DNA from: Candidatus Heimdallarchaeota archaeon
GTDB taxonomy: Archaea > Asgardarchaeota > Heimdallarchaeia > Heimdallarchaeales > Heimdallarchaeaceae
Direction of reading: 5' to 3'
DNA: 10,337 nt
Assembly: GCA_030668825.1 (NCBI GenBank)
Contig: DAOVET010000093.1
Location: 1 to 10,337, forward strand
Shown: positions 1-9,625 of the stretch, piece by piece
Layout of the letters: every line of letters starts with the position of its first letter
Numbering within the stretch: the first letter of the stretch is position 1
Translations under genes and position numbers: made by a program
Notes under the pieces: model-generated
Database searches by the model: none
Told to the model about the DNA's origin: nothing
Seen by the model: the letters and a program-made list of their open reading frames with translations, nothing else

Positions 1-708
1 TGATGTTGGTGCAACGGGAGTTGGTTCAAATTCAGCATCTTCAGCTTCATCTGTTCTTGATTTTCTTTTTGCTAAAGCATCTTTGACTTCTAGGTTAATT
101 GCCATGCTAGCAGGCATCGAACCTTCCACTCCCCCTGCAGCTGCTTCTCTTTCTTTCCTGTGCTCATCAGGATTAACCTTTGTTAATCCAGATCTAACAT
201 CTTGGATGTCAGTAGCACTAACTCCAAATGGACTAAAGACTGGTGCTGCTCCAGGCGCACCAGGATCTCCTGGTACAGGTTCTGGTGCTTTTTGTAAATT
301 GGATGCTGCTTTCATAAGATCGGAACTACTGATTCCACCTCCTGTGGATCCTTGAGTGCCAGATGGTGCAGGAATACCTCCCCCGTCTCCTACTGGAGCA
401 GATAAATTGGGTGCTCCAACTGTACCTGCGTTGCTTGCAGTTAAATTAGGCGCTGATGTCGATACAGGGGTAGCAACAGGTGATTGAAATGAAGGTGCAG
501 CTTGAGGTGAAACGCCCAATGCATGTTCAATAGCATTGATTCTATTAGTAAGAGTGTCAATATAGTCTTCCATTCGTTCTGTACTTCTAATCATGATCAC
601 CCCAAAATTTTCTATTAATTTGGTAATTTTCATGATTGCTTTCTTAGACGGTTCTGCTGTATCTGATAACAGGCCGTCTAGATAGTCGTCGATTGACACA
701 TGTATCAT
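1..708 (-). CDS. Hypothetical protein, 3' end outside the window (>=236 aa): N-terminal coiled coil, Pro/Gly/Ser/Ala-rich disordered linker, two WH2-like repeats, basic-ended helix and acidic patch; candidate actin-regulator-like protein
   Basis: Manual translation from ATG at 708-706 (alternative GTG at 699-697) is open to base 1: MIHVSIDDYLDGLLSDTAEPSKKAIMKITKLIENFGVIMIRSTERMEDYIDTLTNRINAIEHALGVSPQAAPSFQSPVATPVSTSAPNLTASNAGTVGAPNLSAPVGDGGGIPAPSGTQGSTGGGISSSDLMKAASNLQKAPEPVPGDPGAPGAAPVFSPFGVSATDIQDVRSGLTKVNPDEHRKEREAAAGGVEGSMPASMAINLEVKDALAKRKSRTDEAEDAEFEPTPVAPTS. Co-oriented with its neighbours, with an AT-rich TATA-like element upstream. Confidence refers to it being a CDS; the function is a hypothesis. 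Confidence 0.88.
   Translation of the reverse strand, partial: MIHVSIDDYLDGLLSDTAEPSKKAIMKITKLIENFGVIMIRSTERMEDYIDTLTNRINAIEHALGVSPQAAPSFQSPVATPVSTSAPNLTASNAGTVGAPNLSAPVGDGGGIPAPSGTQGSTGGGISSSDLMKAASNLQKAPEPVPGDPGAPGAAPVFSPFGVSATDIQDVRSGLTKVNPDEHRKEREAAAGGVEGSMPASMAINLEVKDALAKRKSRTDEAEDAEFEPTPVAPTS
175..336 (-). repeat. Two-copy internal protein repeat (WH2-like): GISSSDLMKAASNLQKA (336-286) and GVSATDIQDVRSGLTKV (225-175)
   Basis: The two 17-aa segments align without gaps to G-[IV]-S-x-[ST]-D-[LI]-x-x-[AV]-x-S-x-L-x-K-[AV] and are separated by a 20-aa Pro/Gly-rich spacer. Confidence 0.7.
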
Positions 709-726
709 GTGAACACAAAAAATATA

Positions 727-735
727 ATATAAAAA
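727..735 (-). promoter_or_regulatory. Putative archaeal TATA box for the left-edge ORF
   Basis: Minus strand reads TTTTTATAT, about 20 nt upstream of ATG708 and about 29 nt upstream of GTG699. AT-rich context, so the site is not unique. Confidence 0.4.
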
Positions 736-1893: not shown

Positions 1894-3438
1894 TCAGTGA
1901 AATTTAACGGGTTCTGGGAGTTTATCAATGTATTTAAGGAATTTATTTGGCCAGTTATCTTTATCCAAACCTTTCTGAGAAATGAAAGCTGTAAGAAATC
2001 TCTCGAAACTACCACCACCGCATCCTGACCATAATTCAATATTTCCTTCAGCTTTGACAGAGAAGCCTTTTGGATATTTCTGACCTATTATAGAAATATT
2101 CTGAATTTCTAACCATTCACTTTCTTCTCGACTTCCTCTATATGGCATATAAGCTTCATAGTCAATGGTTCCAACAACTAAATCTTCAGCTGAATCCATC
2201 TCATCCTCATGAGCAGATTGTTGTAACCACCATGGAGTAACCTTGGCTTCTCTAACCTCTAAATCAAGAACTTCTTCAAAGATAACTCTAAGTTTGTCTT
2301 TTACAGCCATACCTATTTGTTTAACTTGCTCAGGAGAACCTATGAATAATGTTTCAATACGGTGCAATTCATCAACTCGTTCAAATCCGTAAGCACTACC
2401 TGACTCATAGCGATAAGTGGGGCCACTCCAGTCATAAACCTTGATTGGAAGACTTTCTTTAGCAAGAGTTTTACCCTGAATCCAAGCCCAGAAGGGAGGA
2501 CATTGAGCATAAGACAATCCCCCAATAGGAGCTGATACTTTCTCAGCAAGTTTCTCTAATGGGATAGTTTTTGTGATGGTAATATAATCCGCAATTTCTT
2601 CAAAGTATTCGGGGTCAGCAGATTTAGGTTGAACTACAAAATAGGGTTCAAAACCCCCTTGATAAATACCTTCAGCATGTTCAGATCTCAACCAAATTGA
2701 CCAATCCACCAATTTTGGTATCATCATTTGATTGAACCCTAAAGGCTCATAGACATAATCTATCATAATATGTTTTAATGCTTCAGCTAAAGCAGTTATG
2801 GTGGGAGAAAGTATCCATTGGTTTCTGTAATTTGTTCGTTGAATCCAATTAGCTTTTTGCATCATTTGAGTAGGATTTTCTTCAGTATGATGTTTCTTTT
2901 CCCCACTATACCAGGAAATTTGATGATGTTCCCTTTTAGCACCATAATGCTGTTTAGAAATTTTTTCACCTACTCGACGTACAATACGTTCAATAGCTCC
3001 TTTTTCTACAAAATCTTCTTCAATTTCTGGATCAATTTCGATTTTAACATAACTCTTTCCTTTTTCTTCAAAAAATTCTAGGTTTTTTACTAATGGTAAA
3101 GTGAACTCTTTAACAGGCTTTTCTTCCAATTCTGTTTCAATGATGTATTTGATAAAAGCAAAACCTCTTAGTCCTACACGATATTTTTTACCTATTGCAG
3201 CAGAGAGCTTTTTCCTTAATCTGAGTACTGCCACATGTGGAGATAGTGAATCAACCGATGAAATTGTTATATCAAGTTTAGTTCCCTTGGTTTTCCATTC
3301 GGTGATCTTGAATTCCCCTTTATCTCTTGATTCTTGAGTTTTTTCAGTAAATTGTTTGAAAAGTTCTTCAATTTCACCCTTACTTTCAGGAGGTAAGGGT
3401 CCACTTAATGTAAATTGTACTTCGAGATAGTGTTTCAT
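1894..3438 (-). CDS. serS: Serine--tRNA ligase, type 2 (methanogen-type, zinc-dependent SerRS), 514 aa
   Basis: Full-length resemblance to Methanosarcina-type SerRS as I recall it: N-terminal tRNA-binding domain (RLRKKLSAAIGKKYRVGLRG), YGAKREH, PKLVDWSIW..SEHA, YAQCPPFW (Zn Cys), motif 2 YRYESG..GFERVDELHRIE (Zn Glu), VTPW..Q serine-ordering loop, WLEIQNIS..GQKYPKGF, LWSGC (Zn Cys), ER and QKGLD..NWP. Confidence 0.95.
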   Translation of the reverse strand: MKHYLEVQFTLSGPLPPESKGEIEELFKQFTEKTQESRDKGEFKITEWKTKGTKLDITISSVDSLSPHVAVLRLRKKLSAAIGKKYRVGLRGFAFIKYIIETELEEKPVKEFTLPLVKNLEFFEEKGKSYVKIEIDPEIEEDFVEKGAIERIVRRVGEKISKQHYGAKREHHQISWYSGEKKHHTEENPTQMMQKANWIQRTNYRNQWILSPTITALAEALKHIMIDYVYEPLGFNQMMIPKLVDWSIWLRSEHAEGIYQGGFEPYFVVQPKSADPEYFEEIADYITITKTIPLEKLAEKVSAPIGGLSYAQCPPFWAWIQGKTLAKESLPIKVYDWSGPTYRYESGSAYGFERVDELHRIETLFIGSPEQVKQIGMAVKDKLRVIFEEVLDLEVREAKVTPWWLQQSAHEDEMDSAEDLVVGTIDYEAYMPYRGSREESEWLEIQNISIIGQKYPKGFSVKAEGNIELWSGCGGGSFERFLTAFISQKGLDKDNWPNKFLKYIDKLPEPVKFH

Positions 3439-3517: not shown

Positions 3518-5260
3518 TTATTTTTTATTCGTATAATCTTCTTGTATTTGCAGATATTCTTTAAGAATCCCTTTCAAAGAGTCTTGAGTAATTCTTGAAT
3601 CTTCTGTAATAAGACCATCAGAAATACGAAGATGTCTGAAACCAGGTCTTAATAGAGATAAATCATGAGAACACATGATGAAGGTAGCATTATTCTCTTT
3701 TACGAAACTCATTAAAACATCCATAATTTCTCTTGCTAAATCAGAGTCCATATTCGCTGTTGGCTCGTCTGCAAGCAGAATTGGCGTTTTTCGAGTAAGG
3801 GCTAAGGATAAAGTTGCTCTCTGTTTTTCACCAGCTGATAATTCATCAGGATATGATTCTAATTTATGACTGATATGAACATTTTTAGTCACTTCATTTC
3901 CAATATCTGGGTTGTATTCCTTGCCAAGAAATATGTAAGGAACTAATAGATTGTCTTTCAGTTGTATTGGTTCAAACAGACTATGATATTGAGTGATATA
4001 GGCGATGTTCTCCAATCTGAAATCTGATCTGGATGTATCATCTGCTTTTCCCATTGAATAGTCGTCAATGCGCACAGATCCCTTATCAGGAATCAAAAGC
4101 CCTGCAATAGTATTAAGTAAGGTGGTTTTTCCTACTCCAGAAGGACCAGAGATAAAAAGAAAGTCTCCTTTCTTAATAGTAAGATCTATGCCTTTGATGA
4201 CCGGATGAAGTTGACCAAAAACCCAATAACCCTTTTCTAATCCTTTTATGCGAATATAGTCCTTAGCTTTTGGATTGTATTTGAATTCATTCTCGAAAAG
4301 ATATCGAACATCGTCAAATGAAAGTTCATCCACTGTTTCTTTATATTCATCTGGAGGTTGTTGAAGGATATTGAAAACTTCTTCTTTAGTAACCAAATCA
4401 GGATTCCAAAGCATTGCTAGTTTCTTTGAAGGATGAACTTCAAATTCAGCGAATTCTCGAAGAGCGATTGAATTCTTAACTCTATCCGGAATTTGAAGCA
4501 TATGAGAAGGATCAATGTAAGCACGGTTCAATTCAGAAGAATCCTTAAAAATATCTAACTTTTGTCTTTCTTTTTCATACCCCACGCCAACAAGCCTTCC
4601 ATCACGAATGAGGAAGCTCTTTTCGAAAACATTTCGATATCGAACATCATGAGTGACAATAACCATGGTAGTTCCAAGTTCTTTGTTAACTCCCTTCAAA
4701 GTGTCAATAATGCTGAAAGTGTTCTTCGAATCTAATTGACCTGTAGGTTCATCTGCTAGAATAAAGTGTGGTTGTCTTGCCAAAGCTATAGCAATGGATA
4801 ATCTCATCGATTCTCCCCCACTTATTTTTGCTGCTTTATTGTTTTTCACATGCGTCAGATTGAATAATTTGAGTAATTCTTCCATTTCTTTTCTGGCCAT
4901 TTCTCTTGGAGTATATTTCATTTTCATAGGCATTAGAACATTATCTCTAACTGTTAGTTGTGAGTAGAGATTCTTGCTTGTAAATTGATTTACAAGACCT
5001 ATGTTTTCATATCTGAATTTTCTTCTTTCTTTTTCAGTTAGTAAATCAAGTTGTACCCCTCTTATCATCACCAACCCACCAGTTGGAGTATCAACCCCTG
5101 ACAGAATGTTCATTAAAGTGGTCTTACCTGCTCCTGAAGGACCGATGATCGAGACAAGTTCCCCATCCCCTATATCTAAATCTAGTCCTCTTAAAGCAGA
5201 TACTTTGTATTCTGTTACAGGATCGTGGTAAATTTTTATAACATCTACACATCTTATCAT
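3518..5260 (-). CDS. ABC transporter ATP-binding protein with two tandem LolD/MacB-family NBDs and a central AbrB/SpoVT-like segment, 580 aa
   Basis: NBD1: Walker A GPSGAGKT, signature ISGGESMR, Walker B/D-loop ILADEPTGQLD, H-loop VTHD. NBD2: GPSGVGKT, LSAGEKQR, LLADEPTANMD, CSHD. The DEPT..LD form is typical of the LolD/MacB/FtsE family. Linker contains AYIDPSHMLQIPDRVKNSIALREFAEFEV. Confidence 0.93.
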   Translation of the reverse strand: MIRCVDVIKIYHDPVTEYKVSALRGLDLDIGDGELVSIIGPSGAGKTTLMNILSGVDTPTGGLVMIRGVQLDLLTEKERRKFRYENIGLVNQFTSKNLYSQLTVRDNVLMPMKMKYTPREMARKEMEELLKLFNLTHVKNNKAAKISGGESMRLSIAIALARQPHFILADEPTGQLDSKNTFSIIDTLKGVNKELGTTMVIVTHDVRYRNVFEKSFLIRDGRLVGVGYEKERQKLDIFKDSSELNRAYIDPSHMLQIPDRVKNSIALREFAEFEVHPSKKLAMLWNPDLVTKEEVFNILQQPPDEYKETVDELSFDDVRYLFENEFKYNPKAKDYIRIKGLEKGYWVFGQLHPVIKGIDLTIKKGDFLFISGPSGVGKTTLLNTIAGLLIPDKGSVRIDDYSMGKADDTSRSDFRLENIAYITQYHSLFEPIQLKDNLLVPYIFLGKEYNPDIGNEVTKNVHISHKLESYPDELSAGEKQRATLSLALTRKTPILLADEPTANMDSDLAREIMDVLMSFVKENNATFIMCSHDLSLLRPGFRHLRISDGLITEDSRITQDSLKGILKEYLQIQEDYTNKK

Positions 5261-5269
5261 TTTTTTTCA

Positions 5270-8200
5270 CTACTCCAGATTCCTTGGCATATATTTTGCA
5301 TAATTTCTTTTCATCGACAGATAAAATATCCCCATGAATAGTACAGGTGCTACTACATACGCGATAATAAACGCTACTGCGTTGAATTTCCACAGATAAT
5401 TTATTCCACTATAGAAGAATCTCTTCGTTGCCCAGGTGAATCCCCACATTATAGCGAACCCCACCCCTGTTCCTAATATCAACCCTGGTATAATTCCAGT
5501 AAACATCGCTTCGAACATCGTTAATCGTATAATTCGTTTCGTCGATATTCCCATTTTCTTCAGTCTATCATTTTTTGTTATTCTTTGTTGCAGAATCTTT
5601 ATGGGATTGCTTATGCTTATGAAAGCTATAGCTATTAGACACACTAGCATTGAAAGAGCGAATTCTGCCGAAACTATGTTGAAGAATGGAAATGTTTCAA
5701 ATTGCCTTTCATCACTATCAGTAATTGCTGAATCTATGCCTAGGTTCAATTCTTCAGTTAGATAATGCTCTATCAATGTAAAATTTGCATTTTCTGACAG
5801 CCTAATGAGTAACCTATCTTTATATTTCTCACTTGCGATGTTCACAGTTTCTCTTATTCTCTCAAAATTAGATTGTGTCATTACCACACCTGCGATTCTA
5901 ACAGTTACTCCTGGAATATACTCTCCTGATGTATAAAAAACAGGAATGTAGTTGAATATGTCATATATTTCGAATGTTAAATTCATTGGTGGAAAGAGTG
6001 ACTCAAATTCGAATTCATATTTCTCTCCTGCTCTATCATCATAGAAATATTTTGTGCTAAGCATTGTGTCATTAGCTTCTAGTGCCGTTATTGTCTCTTC
6101 CCAATTATTAAATAGCCTACTTGGAGGCGTATATACCGTGTTCAAGAATTCAGTAGTATTCTCTATCAGATACACTGCTAATGGTTCAAAATCATAACTA
6201 GCTTCTACTTCATGAACAAACGCAGTGCTTTCTACTCCTTGTATAGCTTGAATCTCTGGCAACAGAGATTGATTCTGATCCATCCAATTCTTAACGTATA
6301 TATCTGCACCATTATACAAATATGCATCTTTATCATAATTGAATTCTACAGTTAAGGGGCTCATAATTGATGGTATAGTAATCCCTACTATTAGTAGAAA
6401 AGCAAAGAACATGTTACTGAATAGTTTGATGTCTGATCGAACTTCAACTAAAGTAAATGACCCTATAGTTTTTCTCCGATTCCACGAAATTTTGCTTATT
6501 GCGATCATAATAACTCCATGCAAATCTTTGAGCAATAATCCAATACCTAGTAGAGCTAATAGAACACCTAAGCCTGCAAGATAGACATTAATCATTAGTA
6601 TTGATGTATTTCCTATAGAGGATAGGTTTCTTAGATTTACTTTGTACAAACTGAAGAAAAGTAGAGTTAGACCTATACCAACTCCAATCAGTAGTATTGT
6701 TGGAAGTCTTATTTGTTTTAACAGAGTAACAAGTCTTTGAGGAGTTTTTTGGAAAGTGGTTTTCTTTGTTGAAACTTGTATAATCTTTGGTATAGAGACC
6801 ACTATTAAGGCCGTTATAGTAAATAGTGTGGCCCATCCTAAACCACTGAAATTCAGTACTTGATTCTGCTGGTTGAATGTAAGAAAGGAATCAACTTTCA
6901 GTAATGGAGGTACTAAAGCAAAAGATAAGCCAAACCCGACAAATGATGCTGCTATAGCTTCAAAAATCTTCAAAATCATATAATTAAAGGCTATTCTTCC
7001 AGAAGATAGTCCTTTTGTTTGAAATATTTCTATTTCTTGTTCTAGTCCTTGCGAATACAACTCATTTGTTTCAAATATCAGGAAAATTGCCAAATATAGA
7101 ATTGGTACAGCTAACATGAAAAACAGTAGCATTGATGATTGAATTCTCGGTTCGAGAATCTCTATCATTTTATCTAATTCAGTGTTAAAATCCCAATATC
7201 CATTTTTCATATCTCCAGTGAATTTAAAAAAGTGATAGTTCTCAGATATTATTGCAATGTCTTCCTTTAACTGAGTTAGCATCTCAGGTTTGAAATTACT
7301 GAAATCATAATAGAGTTGTACATAAGTATTTACGAACATATAGTATGGATTTAATCCTTCTAAGTTAGCCCAAGCATTTTCACCAAAAGAGACCATTCCT
7401 CCATAAAGGTTAGTTAAAACTTGAGCAGAATCCATGGGAAGATTATAATCAGTCCAAATTCTTTCAAAATCTGCTGGACCTGGAGATTCAAATAATCCGA
7501 CAATTGTTAGGTTTACATGTGTATCTCCTAGATAAGTATTATAAGAACCAATTTGAGATCCCCAGAAAGTGATTGTGTCATCTACTGTAACATTCAAATT
7601 TATGGTAGGAATATGATCAACAGTATGAGCAATATCATAATGTAATAAGACTTCTCCTGGTGCATATGGCAATCTTCCCTCAACTATGAACTCATTTATG
7701 AAATCGCTGTAATTGTTTGATACAGCCATATATGTTACAACTCTTAAAGAACTAGTATTAGACGTCATGTCCTCTATCATTCCATAGAACTGCGTCGAGT
7801 ATTCAAACCCACTCACAATACTCGCAAAAACTTCTTGTTCTAGTTTAAATCCTGTGAAAATTTCACTTAATGCAACTTGCTCATAATTTTGGACAGCTGG
7901 AATGCTTACATCTTGGGTTCTTGTATCGTAACTGTAAGATAAAGATAAGCTTTCTTTTCCATCATTTAGTATGTTTAGAGTATTTGTATATTCATCAAAC
8001 AATACTTCTCTCTTTGAACTATAAAGTGCAGTACTTGTTAGTATAATTAAAGCCAAAACAGTCATGCTAATTAGATTCATCAGATGACGTTTCTTGTTTG
8101 TTTTAAAAAGATCAAAAAGTGATGAGAAGAAATTAGAGATAAATACCCAGGAATTGATAAAAGGTAAAAAGAGTTTGTTCTTATCCTCATAAATTGGTCT

Positions 8201-9625
8201 GGTCAAGTATCTTTTAATTATAATGAAACCTCTTTTTACTCTCTTTCTAAGCAATATGATAATAAGAGCTAAAACTGATCCAGCAACTATTAAATAAATG
8301 CCAACGTTCTTGAAAAAGATCTGAAATCTATTTAGTTCCTCTAAACCAAGAAAACCAAGTTTCTTAAATTCTTCAATATCATAATCTGAGGAAACATAGA
8401 ATGCAATCATCTCCTCTTCTGAAAAGATACGACCTGGCAGATCTCCTTGTGCTAAAAGCGTTGTATGTGTAAATATTCTTTTTCCATCTTCTGTTTCATA
8501 AACATAGAATGAATGATAATTATCTTTGTCAGGGACATTATAAATGAAGATTTCTTCTTTTGTGAAACTGGTATAGTCGTCAGTTATAATAGCAACCTTT
8601 GACTTCAGGTTATTTCCAGAGAAAAATTCCTCTGTACTAACATGGGGTTCTGAGTCAATAATATATTTTGAGTTGTTTTCTCCTTGAGCAACATAAAAAT
8701 TATTGTATGGATAAACTCCTGTGGTTGTAACATTGAAATCAGCGAAATCAATAGTTTGGTTTATAGAATATTTTAGACGATAAATCTTATCGTCTCTTGC
8801 CATTACTAAACTGAAATTTCCATCATTTGTTAAATAAAACCTCGGATCAAATCCTCCTTCAAGTAGAATCATAGAATTTGACACATAAGAATCGTTGTAC
8901 CCTTTCGTAACTATTGTTGTATACGTGTGTTCATAGGAAAATCTAGGAGTTTCTCTATACAAACTATAGATTGTACCATTGACATAGTGATAATCAACTA
9001 AATAATCAAATTCTGCATCAAGAATCCATCTCTCCTCAAGAATATGTGAGCCATTTTCATAAAATCGTGTCATTTCAAACCTTGTTGTAGCAATTTCTGA
9101 TGTTGGAGGCCAATTTTGAATGAAAGCTAAAACCATAACCATTGTGTTATTTTCTTCATGGTATAGTTTCATACGAGGATAGTTCATGTTAGCGTTGTAA
9201 GCATAAAATTCCTCATCACTTGGACCAGCTGTTTCTGTCCAGATGTATCTATGGAATTTCATATAGCCAAAGAAAGTGTGAAATGCATAAAATAATTCAA
9301 TCCCCCCTTCTATAGTGAACAACTCGAAATAGTCAATATTGAAATCCTCGATTATTACGATGTTGGTTTCATCATTTACCTTATGAATTATCATAAATGT
9401 ACTATTTTCATATAAAATTCGTGCGAGAAAATGAAAATTACCTGAAGTATCTACAATTGATTTAGTTTCTATACCTATTTCATCTCCTGTTCTGTTAAGG
9501 AGTAAGAATAGCTCATCATCCATTTCTATTTGAGCATTCACTCTCAATTGCTGACTAAGTGATACTGTTGATGAAACAAATAAGATTATCATGAATAATA
9601 GATAAAGGGGCTTTTTTCTCTTCAT
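5270..9625 (-). CDS. Large ABC permease, FtsX/MacB (type VII) family, with two fused permease halves and an additional N-terminal extracellular domain, 1451 aa
   Basis: Signal or anchor sequence (MKRKKPLYLLFMIILFVSS), then ~400 aa hydrophilic aromatic-rich domain and a TM helix (VGIYLIVAGSVLALIIILLRKR). MacB-PCD motifs IVEGRLP..PGEVLL and NLTIVGLF; FtsX motif EQEIEIFQTKGLSSGRI; second half with NGADIYV and QRITKNDRLKKMGISTKRIIRLTMFEA. Stop codon is 9 nt from the ATPase start, consistent with an operon. Confidence 0.9.
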   Translation of the reverse strand: MKRKKPLYLLFMIILFVSSTVSLSQQLRVNAQIEMDDELFLLLNRTGDEIGIETKSIVDTSGNFHFLARILYENSTFMIIHKVNDETNIVIIEDFNIDYFELFTIEGGIELFYAFHTFFGYMKFHRYIWTETAGPSDEEFYAYNANMNYPRMKLYHEENNTMVMVLAFIQNWPPTSEIATTRFEMTRFYENGSHILEERWILDAEFDYLVDYHYVNGTIYSLYRETPRFSYEHTYTTIVTKGYNDSYVSNSMILLEGGFDPRFYLTNDGNFSLVMARDDKIYRLKYSINQTIDFADFNVTTTGVYPYNNFYVAQGENNSKYIIDSEPHVSTEEFFSGNNLKSKVAIITDDYTSFTKEEIFIYNVPDKDNYHSFYVYETEDGKRIFTHTTLLAQGDLPGRIFSEEEMIAFYVSSDYDIEEFKKLGFLGLEELNRFQIFFKNVGIYLIVAGSVLALIIILLRKRVKRGFIIIKRYLTRPIYEDKNKLFLPFINSWVFISNFFSSLFDLFKTNKKRHLMNLISMTVLALIILTSTALYSSKREVLFDEYTNTLNILNDGKESLSLSYSYDTRTQDVSIPAVQNYEQVALSEIFTGFKLEQEVFASIVSGFEYSTQFYGMIEDMTSNTSSLRVVTYMAVSNNYSDFINEFIVEGRLPYAPGEVLLHYDIAHTVDHIPTINLNVTVDDTITFWGSQIGSYNTYLGDTHVNLTIVGLFESPGPADFERIWTDYNLPMDSAQVLTNLYGGMVSFGENAWANLEGLNPYYMFVNTYVQLYYDFSNFKPEMLTQLKEDIAIISENYHFFKFTGDMKNGYWDFNTELDKMIEILEPRIQSSMLLFFMLAVPILYLAIFLIFETNELYSQGLEQEIEIFQTKGLSSGRIAFNYMILKIFEAIAASFVGFGLSFALVPPLLKVDSFLTFNQQNQVLNFSGLGWATLFTITALIVVSIPKIIQVSTKKTTFQKTPQRLVTLLKQIRLPTILLIGVGIGLTLLFFSLYKVNLRNLSSIGNTSILMINVYLAGLGVLLALLGIGLLLKDLHGVIMIAISKISWNRRKTIGSFTLVEVRSDIKLFSNMFFAFLLIVGITIPSIMSPLTVEFNYDKDAYLYNGADIYVKNWMDQNQSLLPEIQAIQGVESTAFVHEVEASYDFEPLAVYLIENTTEFLNTVYTPPSRLFNNWEETITALEANDTMLSTKYFYDDRAGEKYEFEFESLFPPMNLTFEIYDIFNYIPVFYTSGEYIPGVTVRIAGVVMTQSNFERIRETVNIASEKYKDRLLIRLSENANFTLIEHYLTEELNLGIDSAITDSDERQFETFPFFNIVSAEFALSMLVCLIAIAFISISNPIKILQQRITKNDRLKKMGISTKRIIRLTMFEAMFTGIIPGLILGTGVGFAIMWGFTWATKRFFYSGINYLWKFNAVAFIIAYVVAPVLFMGIFYLSMKRNYAKYMPRNLE

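Follow-up and report, generated by a model that had tools for sequence, protein, structure and literature searches.

The window analysed in this study, a stretch of 10,337 bases from a Candidatus Heimdallarchaeota archaeon, forms the start of contig C81 and opens, on its minus strand, with a truncated gene (positions 1-708). An earlier note, made from the sequence alone, had seen in the product of this gene the layout of a WASP/WAVE-like nucleation-promoting factor (NPF). We found a real and conserved gene that encodes a modular, largely disordered protein in a genome with eukaryote-like actin, and the product is a tentative candidate for an actin-assembly factor of another type.

The truncated gene and its full-length product

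The minus-strand open reading frame (ORF) is open from 1 to 798, has an open 3' end and runs off window position 1; with an ATG at 708-706, the window holds the first 236 codons. Since the window begins where contig C81 begins, the gene is truncated by the contig end and not by the window edge. A complete version of the protein was present in a public protein collection (P0037, 264 amino acids), with 100% identity to the window protein over 99% of the query; residues 1-233 of P0037 lie inside the window and the remaining 31 residues lie outside it. What the earlier note described as an ORF of at least 236 codons is thus the 5' part, 88% of the length, of a real Heimdallarchaeaceae gene of 264-268 codons, complete as P0037 and with conserved orthologues. 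The genome bin comprises 2.76 Mb in 138 contigs and is 90.6% complete with 4.67% contamination, and genes missing from it are reported here as not found rather than as absent.

Another contig of the same bin (C120:1-516, locus L002) carries a copy of the 3' half of the gene with a true stop. This copy was 89% identical in DNA and 91% identical in protein to window 1-420, and both versions touch contig ends; they probably represent two strains in one bin, the assembly having broken in the repetitive linker. The true end of the protein, read from the C120 copy, is ...PTSPQKSTKQMKEALQGELRDAFSSLLESDTKED, followed by the stop codon.

The start of P0037 was called at the GTG at 699, three codons downstream of ATG 708. 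Of 18 orthologous loci, 11 have ATG in the column of that start codon, two have GTG and five have TTG. The TTTTTATAT box was found upstream of the gene in all 17 orthologous loci having enough upstream sequence. Because the centre of this box lies only about 23 nt before ATG 708, we infer an archaeal promoter whose transcription start would give a leaderless or nearly leaderless mRNA. The RNA reads of one doubtful run were limited to parts of the neighbouring threonine aldolase gene.

Modular architecture, conservation and range of the family

The structure of the protein was predicted with AlphaFold2 (AF2) run on a family alignment of 53 sequences, giving a mean predicted local distance difference test score (pLDDT) of 59 and a predicted template modelling score (pTM) of 0.21, low values that are expected because the chain is largely disordered. 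Helices were predicted at residues 3-12, 16-61, 125-133, 162-171, 177-189, 197-217 and 237-261, and the other residues were disordered, the longest such tract covered being 66-121. In its best heptad register the long helix 16-61 has L, I, V, M or F at 9 of 13 a/d positions, many of them Ile, and the model suggests that the N-terminal helix is probably a parallel coiled-coil element through which the protein would oligomerise. The linker that follows contains APNLS-type repeats, and this gene was the sole ORF with at least two such copies among the 7445 ORFs of the genome. From their sequence these repeats look like a short linear motif; profilin as the reader of this motif is a guess. Both L-x-K-[AV] stretches were predicted to be non-helical, the helices 125-133 and 162-171 stopping at the N or G just before them.

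The positions and conservation of these elements are given in Table 1. All parts of the layout described in the earlier note, that is, a coiled coil, a P/G/S/A linker, two helix + LxK[AV] units, a further helix and an acidic run, were recovered in the AF2 model and in the alignment. Its two caveats on the acidic patch, a non-terminal position and Phe in place of Trp, were also borne out, since about 38 further residues follow residue 226, among them the best-conserved helix of the protein.

Table 1. Features of the truncated gene and its product, with window coordinates and conservation in the family alignment
Feature	Residues	Window position	Strand	Conservation	Remarks
TATA-like box TTTTTATAT		727..735	minus		centre ~23 nt upstream of ATG 708
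Start region		697..708	minus		ATG 708-706, GTG 699-697; from orthologue alignment
N-terminal helical domain	3-61	517..693	minus	0.86 (N-terminal helix)	short helix 3-12 and long helix 16-61, pLDDT ~85
P/A/G/S linker	62-121	337..516	minus	0.54-0.60	disordered, pLDDT <50
APNLT motif in linker		439..453	minus		repeat of APNLS type
APNLS motif in linker		400..414	minus	0.95	repeat of APNLS type
Repeat unit 1, GISSSDLMKAASNLQKAPE	122-140	280..336	minus	0.83	helix 125-133, then N-LQKA-P
Repeat unit 2 with extension, FSPFGVSATDIQDVRSGLTKVNPDEHRKEREAA	155-187	139..237	minus	0.84 (repeat unit 2)	helix 162-171, G-LTKV, helix 177-189
Basic-ended ("C-like") helix, GSMPASMAINLEVKDALAKRKSR	193-215	55..123	minus	0.85	AF2 helix 197-217
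Acidic patch TDEAEDAEFEP	216-226	22..54	minus	0.55	net charge -6; acidic residues drift, conserved Phe (F224) and P226 kept in >=90% of members
Start of last linker, TPVAPTS	227-233	1..21	minus		gene then leaves contig
C-terminal helix STKQMKEALQGELRDAFSSLLESD and acidic tail		in the 31 residues beyond the window	minus	0.97 (helix), highest of all blocks	from P0037 and the C120 copy
Linkers overall				0.47-0.64	

Conservation was measured as the frequency of the majority residue per segment in the family alignment, whose 53 sequences extend down to 46% identity. The motif blocks scored 0.83-0.97 against 0.47-0.64 for the linkers; homologues thus keep the repeats and the C-like helix and let the linkers drift, which is the pattern that the earlier note had proposed to look for. 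The Leu and Lys of both L-x-K-[AV] stretches (L135, K137, L172 and K174) belong to the 38 invariant columns, as do E204 and R212 of the basic-ended helix. In repeat unit 2, G171, V175, H180, R181, E183 and R184 were kept in at least 90% of members.

The two helix + L-x-K-[AV] units aligned in register (hhalign probability 76%, E 2.3e-5, 20 columns), a test that is partly circular because the segments had been pre-cut in register by a regular expression anchored on L-x-K. Run against the 7445 ORFs of the genome, the repeat profile matched this gene, its C120 copy and no other. In the main family, LKKV replaces LTKV in unit 2 of at least 10 members. The copy number of the repeat also varies, with two units in the genus of the window's genome and three both in genus g13 (L080, L081) and in the f3/Kariarchaeaceae relatives.

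Among 1.84 billion representative proteins, a profile search returned only 13 at E<=0.001, and a 90%-identity collection yielded 64. All members that carry a name are annotated as "hypothetical protein", from Heimdallarchaeota, Heimdallarchaeaceae, Kariarchaeaceae or the "Asgard group". Queried with the single protein, 20 of 24 genomes of the genus yielded an orthologue, against none of 16 genomes from three other families of the order. The family profile matched 31 of 400 genomes of the phylum: 26 of 30 in the protein's own family, covering all five genera sampled, and elsewhere the single genome of f2, two of 12 in f3 and, marginally (E 4.5e-4), one of 12 in f7. None of the 135 genomes of the largest family sampled was matched, and the family was not found in the Lokiarchaeon group. 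A four-family profile recovered no members outside Heimdallarchaeaceae and Kariarchaeaceae except one spurious integrase-domain protein, and with an f3 relative as query the gain was limited to a fragment and a Kariarchaeaceae protein, P0074. In the ESM Atlas the whole protein reached only unnamed Asgard clusters (0.82-0.84), and its C-terminal half, looked up among the named clusters, had no usable match.

The distant relatives retain the same elements in variable form. Proteins of genus g13 have three units (FASEIANAAKSLQKAP, SAILEAKAKLQKAP and SAILEAKAKLKKVDPDAHKKER). Those of f3 combine GGPNLGGAP repeats with three D/E-x-[IL]-x-x-AL-x-SLK[KS]V units, and their C-terminal motif is EEMKSLLQEKLKAAFK. 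P0074 has eight PNL-type repeats (GPNLxAGP); its units, three in number, read ...ALANLKKAPEKEE, and it also contains FASILEKRRQTTEDE and, C-terminally, MKAQLQNRLKSAFKK. The f3/Kariarchaeaceae units contain ALSSLKKV and ALANLKKAP. In a 10-sequence alignment of four families (A7), L135 and the C-terminal K-x-x-L-Q-x-x-L-x-x-A-F were invariant, the latter corresponding to K242, L245, Q246, L249, A252 and F253 of the C-terminal helix, and K137 and L172 were kept in at least 90% of sequences.

Three further observations concern these sequences. The C-terminal helix of the C120 copy (L002:418-516), K-x-x-L-Q-x-x-L-[KR]-x-A-F, is a signature of the wider family; similar [LV]K-x-AF motifs occur four times in the long f2 form (P0012, L084); and the match to this family at G026:C3:107623-108120 (L085) contains one in-frame TAG.

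Actin toolkit of the genome and neighbouring genes

The presence of a eukaryote-like actin in the host genome, whose lack would have refuted the reading of the earlier note, was verified: two genes matched Pfam Actin over nearly the full profile (446 and 430 bits) and are 83% identical to each other. Actin of this type was found in 38 of 41 related genomes. The genome also has three matches to gelsolin domains and an ARPC4-like ORF of 166 amino acids (G000:C94:21613-21918; L028:1480-1980, minus strand) that scored 31.5 bits with Pfam ARPC4, above the cut-off. Neither Arp2 nor Arp3 was among the Pfam Actin matches of the genome, both matches being actins. Searches for ARPC2 and ARPC3 came back empty at E<=1, the one for ARPC2 with silent controls as well. 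Asgard profilins are known to be divergent. Pfam Profilin had no match in the genome at E<=0.001, where the control genomes were silent too, or at E<=10.

In one related genome the actin gene (G027:C275:2869-4002, L054) contains one in-frame TAG. Two genomes of the genus have an ORF of about 490 amino acids (G005:C42:17305-18108 and G007:C116:3381-4184) that shares 37-41% identity with actin over the latter's C-terminal two thirds; judged from its sequence, it may encode an actin-related protein that is lacking or unassembled in the window's genome.

Beside the truncated gene, the window carries genes for threonine aldolase (806-1840) and seryl-tRNA synthetase (1894-3438), the latter of the methanogen type (Pfam tRNA_bind_4). 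The gene order is seryl-tRNA synthetase, threonine aldolase, the present gene and an ORF with a metallo-beta-lactamase motif and a long N-terminal extension. The C120 copy is followed by an ORF of 436 amino acids with the metallo-beta-lactamase-type motif HAHLDHTG. This order is kept wherever the loci reach: all four genes are present in L080 and L081 and the last three in L077, L079 and L083, and L082 ends within the gene. Further into the window, a two-cassette ABC ATPase (580 amino acids; 3518-5260) adjoins a membrane protein of 1451 amino acids (5270-9625), both on the minus strand. The sole Pfam match of the membrane protein was a C-terminal FtsX-like permease domain at 23.9 bits, just below the cut-off, and from sequence the two proteins resemble a MacB-type exporter whose extracytoplasmic part would be very large.

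A candidate actin-assembly factor

We tentatively read the protein as an oligomeric, multivalent actin-monomer-binding assembly factor, closer to the tandem-WH2/VASP type than to a WASP/WAVE activator of the Arp2/3 complex, and give this reading a probability of about 0.35. An Arp2/3 activator is the poorer fit, given that no Arp2/3 complex could be detected and that the acidic patch, which has no Trp, lies inside the chain. By analogy, a tandem helix + L-[KTQ]-K-[VA] unit with a helix breaker and variable copy number, joined by a proline-containing linker to a putatively oligomerising helix, fits a multivalent monomer-binding factor, and the family is known only from a lineage having eukaryote-like actin. 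Since the genome has such an actin, the motifs are conserved, and the full-length protein is not a member of any unrelated known family (Pfam searches with the window protein, seven relatives and the 53 members), an actin-monomer-binding role is still tenable.

In such a factor the N-terminal 46-residue helix would form a parallel coiled coil gathering several flexible arms, and the high Ile content at its core positions suggests a trimer. Each arm would offer two short helix + L-[KTQ]-K-[VA] units (three in some relatives) as putative monomer-binding sites, together with APNLS-type short linear motifs that could recruit a further factor, for example profilin. The basic-ended helix and the acidic patch might provide extra contacts or regulation, and the invariant C-terminal helix might be a separate docking or autoregulatory site. 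Monomer-binding sites clustered in this manner could nucleate filaments, or supply growing ends with monomers, independently of the Arp2/3 complex, following the logic of tandem-WH2 nucleators and of Ena/VASP.

Tandem-WH2 nucleators and sequesterers include Spire, Cobl, the bacterial VopL/VopF and beta-thymosin/ciboulot. The archaeal protein resembles them in having two to three tandem units of a short helix and an LKKV/T-like stretch within a disordered chain and, as in VopL, an element that would oligomerise and so multiply the sites. It differs from them in the shifted spacing between helix and Leu, in the middle basic residue, which is often T or Q in the archaeal family, in its additional conserved APNLS repeats and C-terminal helix, in its archaeal host and in matching WH2 neither in Pfam nor in the PDB. 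The EVH2 region of Ena/VASP contains a G-actin-binding site, an F-actin-binding site and a tetramerising coiled coil, and is preceded by a proline-rich region. A probably oligomerising coiled coil, a proline-containing linker, a putative WH2-like monomer site and a helix with an Arg/Lys-rich end (MEVKDALAKRKSR in the window protein, SEIMGVLSRRRDRK in the distant relative P0012) are the points of likeness; however, the coiled coil is N-terminal in the archaeal protein and C-terminal in VASP, and EVH1 and a true polyproline run are lacking here, no WH1/EVH1 or VASP model being among the Pfam matches of the window protein, 13 relatives and 53 members. A parallel also exists within the same archaeal lineage, where passages of PMC9433394 describe an LKKT-like motif (Leu, two basic residues, Thr/Val) of the Thor and Heimdall two-domain gelsolins that contacts actin in crystals, in the variants LKHV/LRRT (Heim) and LRRV (Thor). 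There, a Leu-basic-basic-Val/Thr stretch is used on actin, but it links two folded gelsolin domains, whereas the present protein is disordered and has no gelsolin domain; the repeat profile did not match the gelsolin genes of the genome.

A number of results weigh against this reading, the chief of them being that no sequence test supports homology to WH2, VCA or VASP proteins. The search with Pfam WH2 (PF02205) that the earlier note had suggested was negative throughout, with no match in the genome at E<=10 (12 candidates scored), none in the window protein or in 7 + 6 relatives at E<=10; the 53 members, searched at E<=1, gave none either. In the PDB, the C-terminal half used as a profile had no match at E<=10, hence no WH2, VCA or VASP chain, and a profile of 26 repeat units matched two unrelated chains and no chain of these three kinds. 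The distance from the helix hydrophobics to the Leu is one to two residues off that of canonical WH2. The repeat-unit helices are weakly amphipathic (hydrophobic moment 0.26-0.43), the LQKA and LTKV of the window protein are without the first basic residue of L-[KR]-[KR]-[VT], and L-x-K-[AV] alone is a very short pattern for which chance matches are not negligible. The best-conserved block, the C-terminal helix, has no counterpart in WH2 or VCA proteins, and the gene neighbours (threonine aldolase, seryl-tRNA synthetase and the metallo-beta-lactamase-type ORF) offer no actin link. Finally, the Pfam family matched by most members, CCDC53 (PF10152), was reached by nine of the 53 at E<=1, and two relatives exceeded its curated cut-off of 24.6 bits (P0069, 26.9 bits; L080, 25.5 bits). 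Since the same N-helix profile matched the trimeric coiled coil of influenza HA2 in the PDB (E 0.0012), along with other coiled coils, this likeness appears to be a generic, perhaps trimeric, coiled-coil signal.

A rival reading is a disordered scaffold or adaptor unrelated to actin, in which the coiled coil oligomerises and the APNLS motifs, helix + LxK[AV] units, basic helix and C-terminal helix dock other partners. Such a scaffold is about as probable as the actin-assembly factor: every family-level sequence test for actin-binding modules failed, a C-terminal helix that scores 0.97 and has residues invariant across four families is foreign to WH2/VCA proteins, the gene is syntenic with housekeeping genes, and the protein-language-model look-up gave either unnamed Asgard clusters below 0.9 or nothing. 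An actin-unrelated role would leave unexplained the specific combination of a variable-copy, LKKV-like tandem unit with an oligomerising helix and a proline-containing linker, as well as the confinement of the family to a lineage with eukaryote-like actin, and no result points to an alternative partner. In another alternative the protein would be an ESCRT or membrane-remodelling adaptor, its repeats being MIM1-like helices that bind MIT domains (e.g. of Vps4). MIM1 binds the MIT domain as a continuous helix, (D/E)xxLxxRLxxL(K/R), with the consensus acidic-x-x-L-x-x-A/R-L-x-x-L-K/R. By eye and loosely, DDLQAALSSLKK and GIADALANLKK of the f3/Kariarchaeaceae relatives fit this consensus about as well as they fit WH2. 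In the window's genus, however, a helix breaker (G171, N134) stands just before the Leu, where the AF2 helix stops, whereas a MIM1 helix continues through L-K/R; with a Pro one to three residues after the unit (LQKAP, LTKVNP) in addition, we consider this adaptor improbable.

The NPF reading of the earlier note fared worst. In its full form the protein would be a true precursor of class I NPFs (WASP/WAVE/WASH), with a CCDC53/BRK1-type N-helix and a V-V-C-A region activating an Arp2/3-like complex. The order of an assembly helix, a Pro-containing linker, V, V, a C-like helix and an acidic patch with an aromatic residue does match that of WASP/WAVE/WASH, and the CCDC53 matches in members of the family, the weak Myo1_CA match in two of the 53 members (best E 0.27; not relied on) and the ARPC4-like gene point the same way. 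Against this, the window protein has no Pfam match at all, and CCDC53 is silent in it and, even at E<=10, in the genome. The missing WH2 and VCA matches, the Phe in an internal acidic patch and the failure to find Arp2/Arp3, ARPC2 (with the silent controls noted above) or ARPC3 complete the case, and an NPF precursor is very improbable indeed.

If the favoured reading of a multivalent actin-monomer-binding factor holds, it would bear on a gap in the cell biology of Asgard archaea. According to passages of PMC13716822, these organisms have dynamic actin filaments and protrusions, the regulators on record there are profilins and gelsolins only, and no Asgard nucleator or polymerase is recorded; the organism used for co-immunoprecipitation in that study was a Lokiarchaeon. 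A literature search returned no stand-alone WH2-type, VASP-type or nucleation-promoting protein of Asgard archaea, although the supplementary tables of PMC13716822 may list relevant ones. The Heimdall lineage is called phylogenetically closest to eukaryotes in the abstract of PMC8813620. If this candidate does bind actin, it would give direct experimental access to how Asgard filaments are nucleated or elongated; the hypothesis itself lends itself to bench work, since the protein is small, soluble-looking and modular and its invariant L135, K137, L172 and K174 can be changed by point mutation.

A bolder proposal, which we regard as rather unlikely, would make this family an actin nucleator or a polymerase of filaments, the first one in archaea, with tandem WH2-like units oligomerised by a coiled coil and sharing ancestry with, or foreshadowing, V-C-A and EVH2; were it true, motif-based actin assembly would be older than the Arp2/3 complex and eukaryogenesis. 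Should the protein not bind actin, the family would be an uncharacterised, lineage-specific scaffold. If it does bind actin, WH2-type actin assembly would be pushed back before eukaryotes, and the family would add a new, archaeal form to a known kind of regulator.

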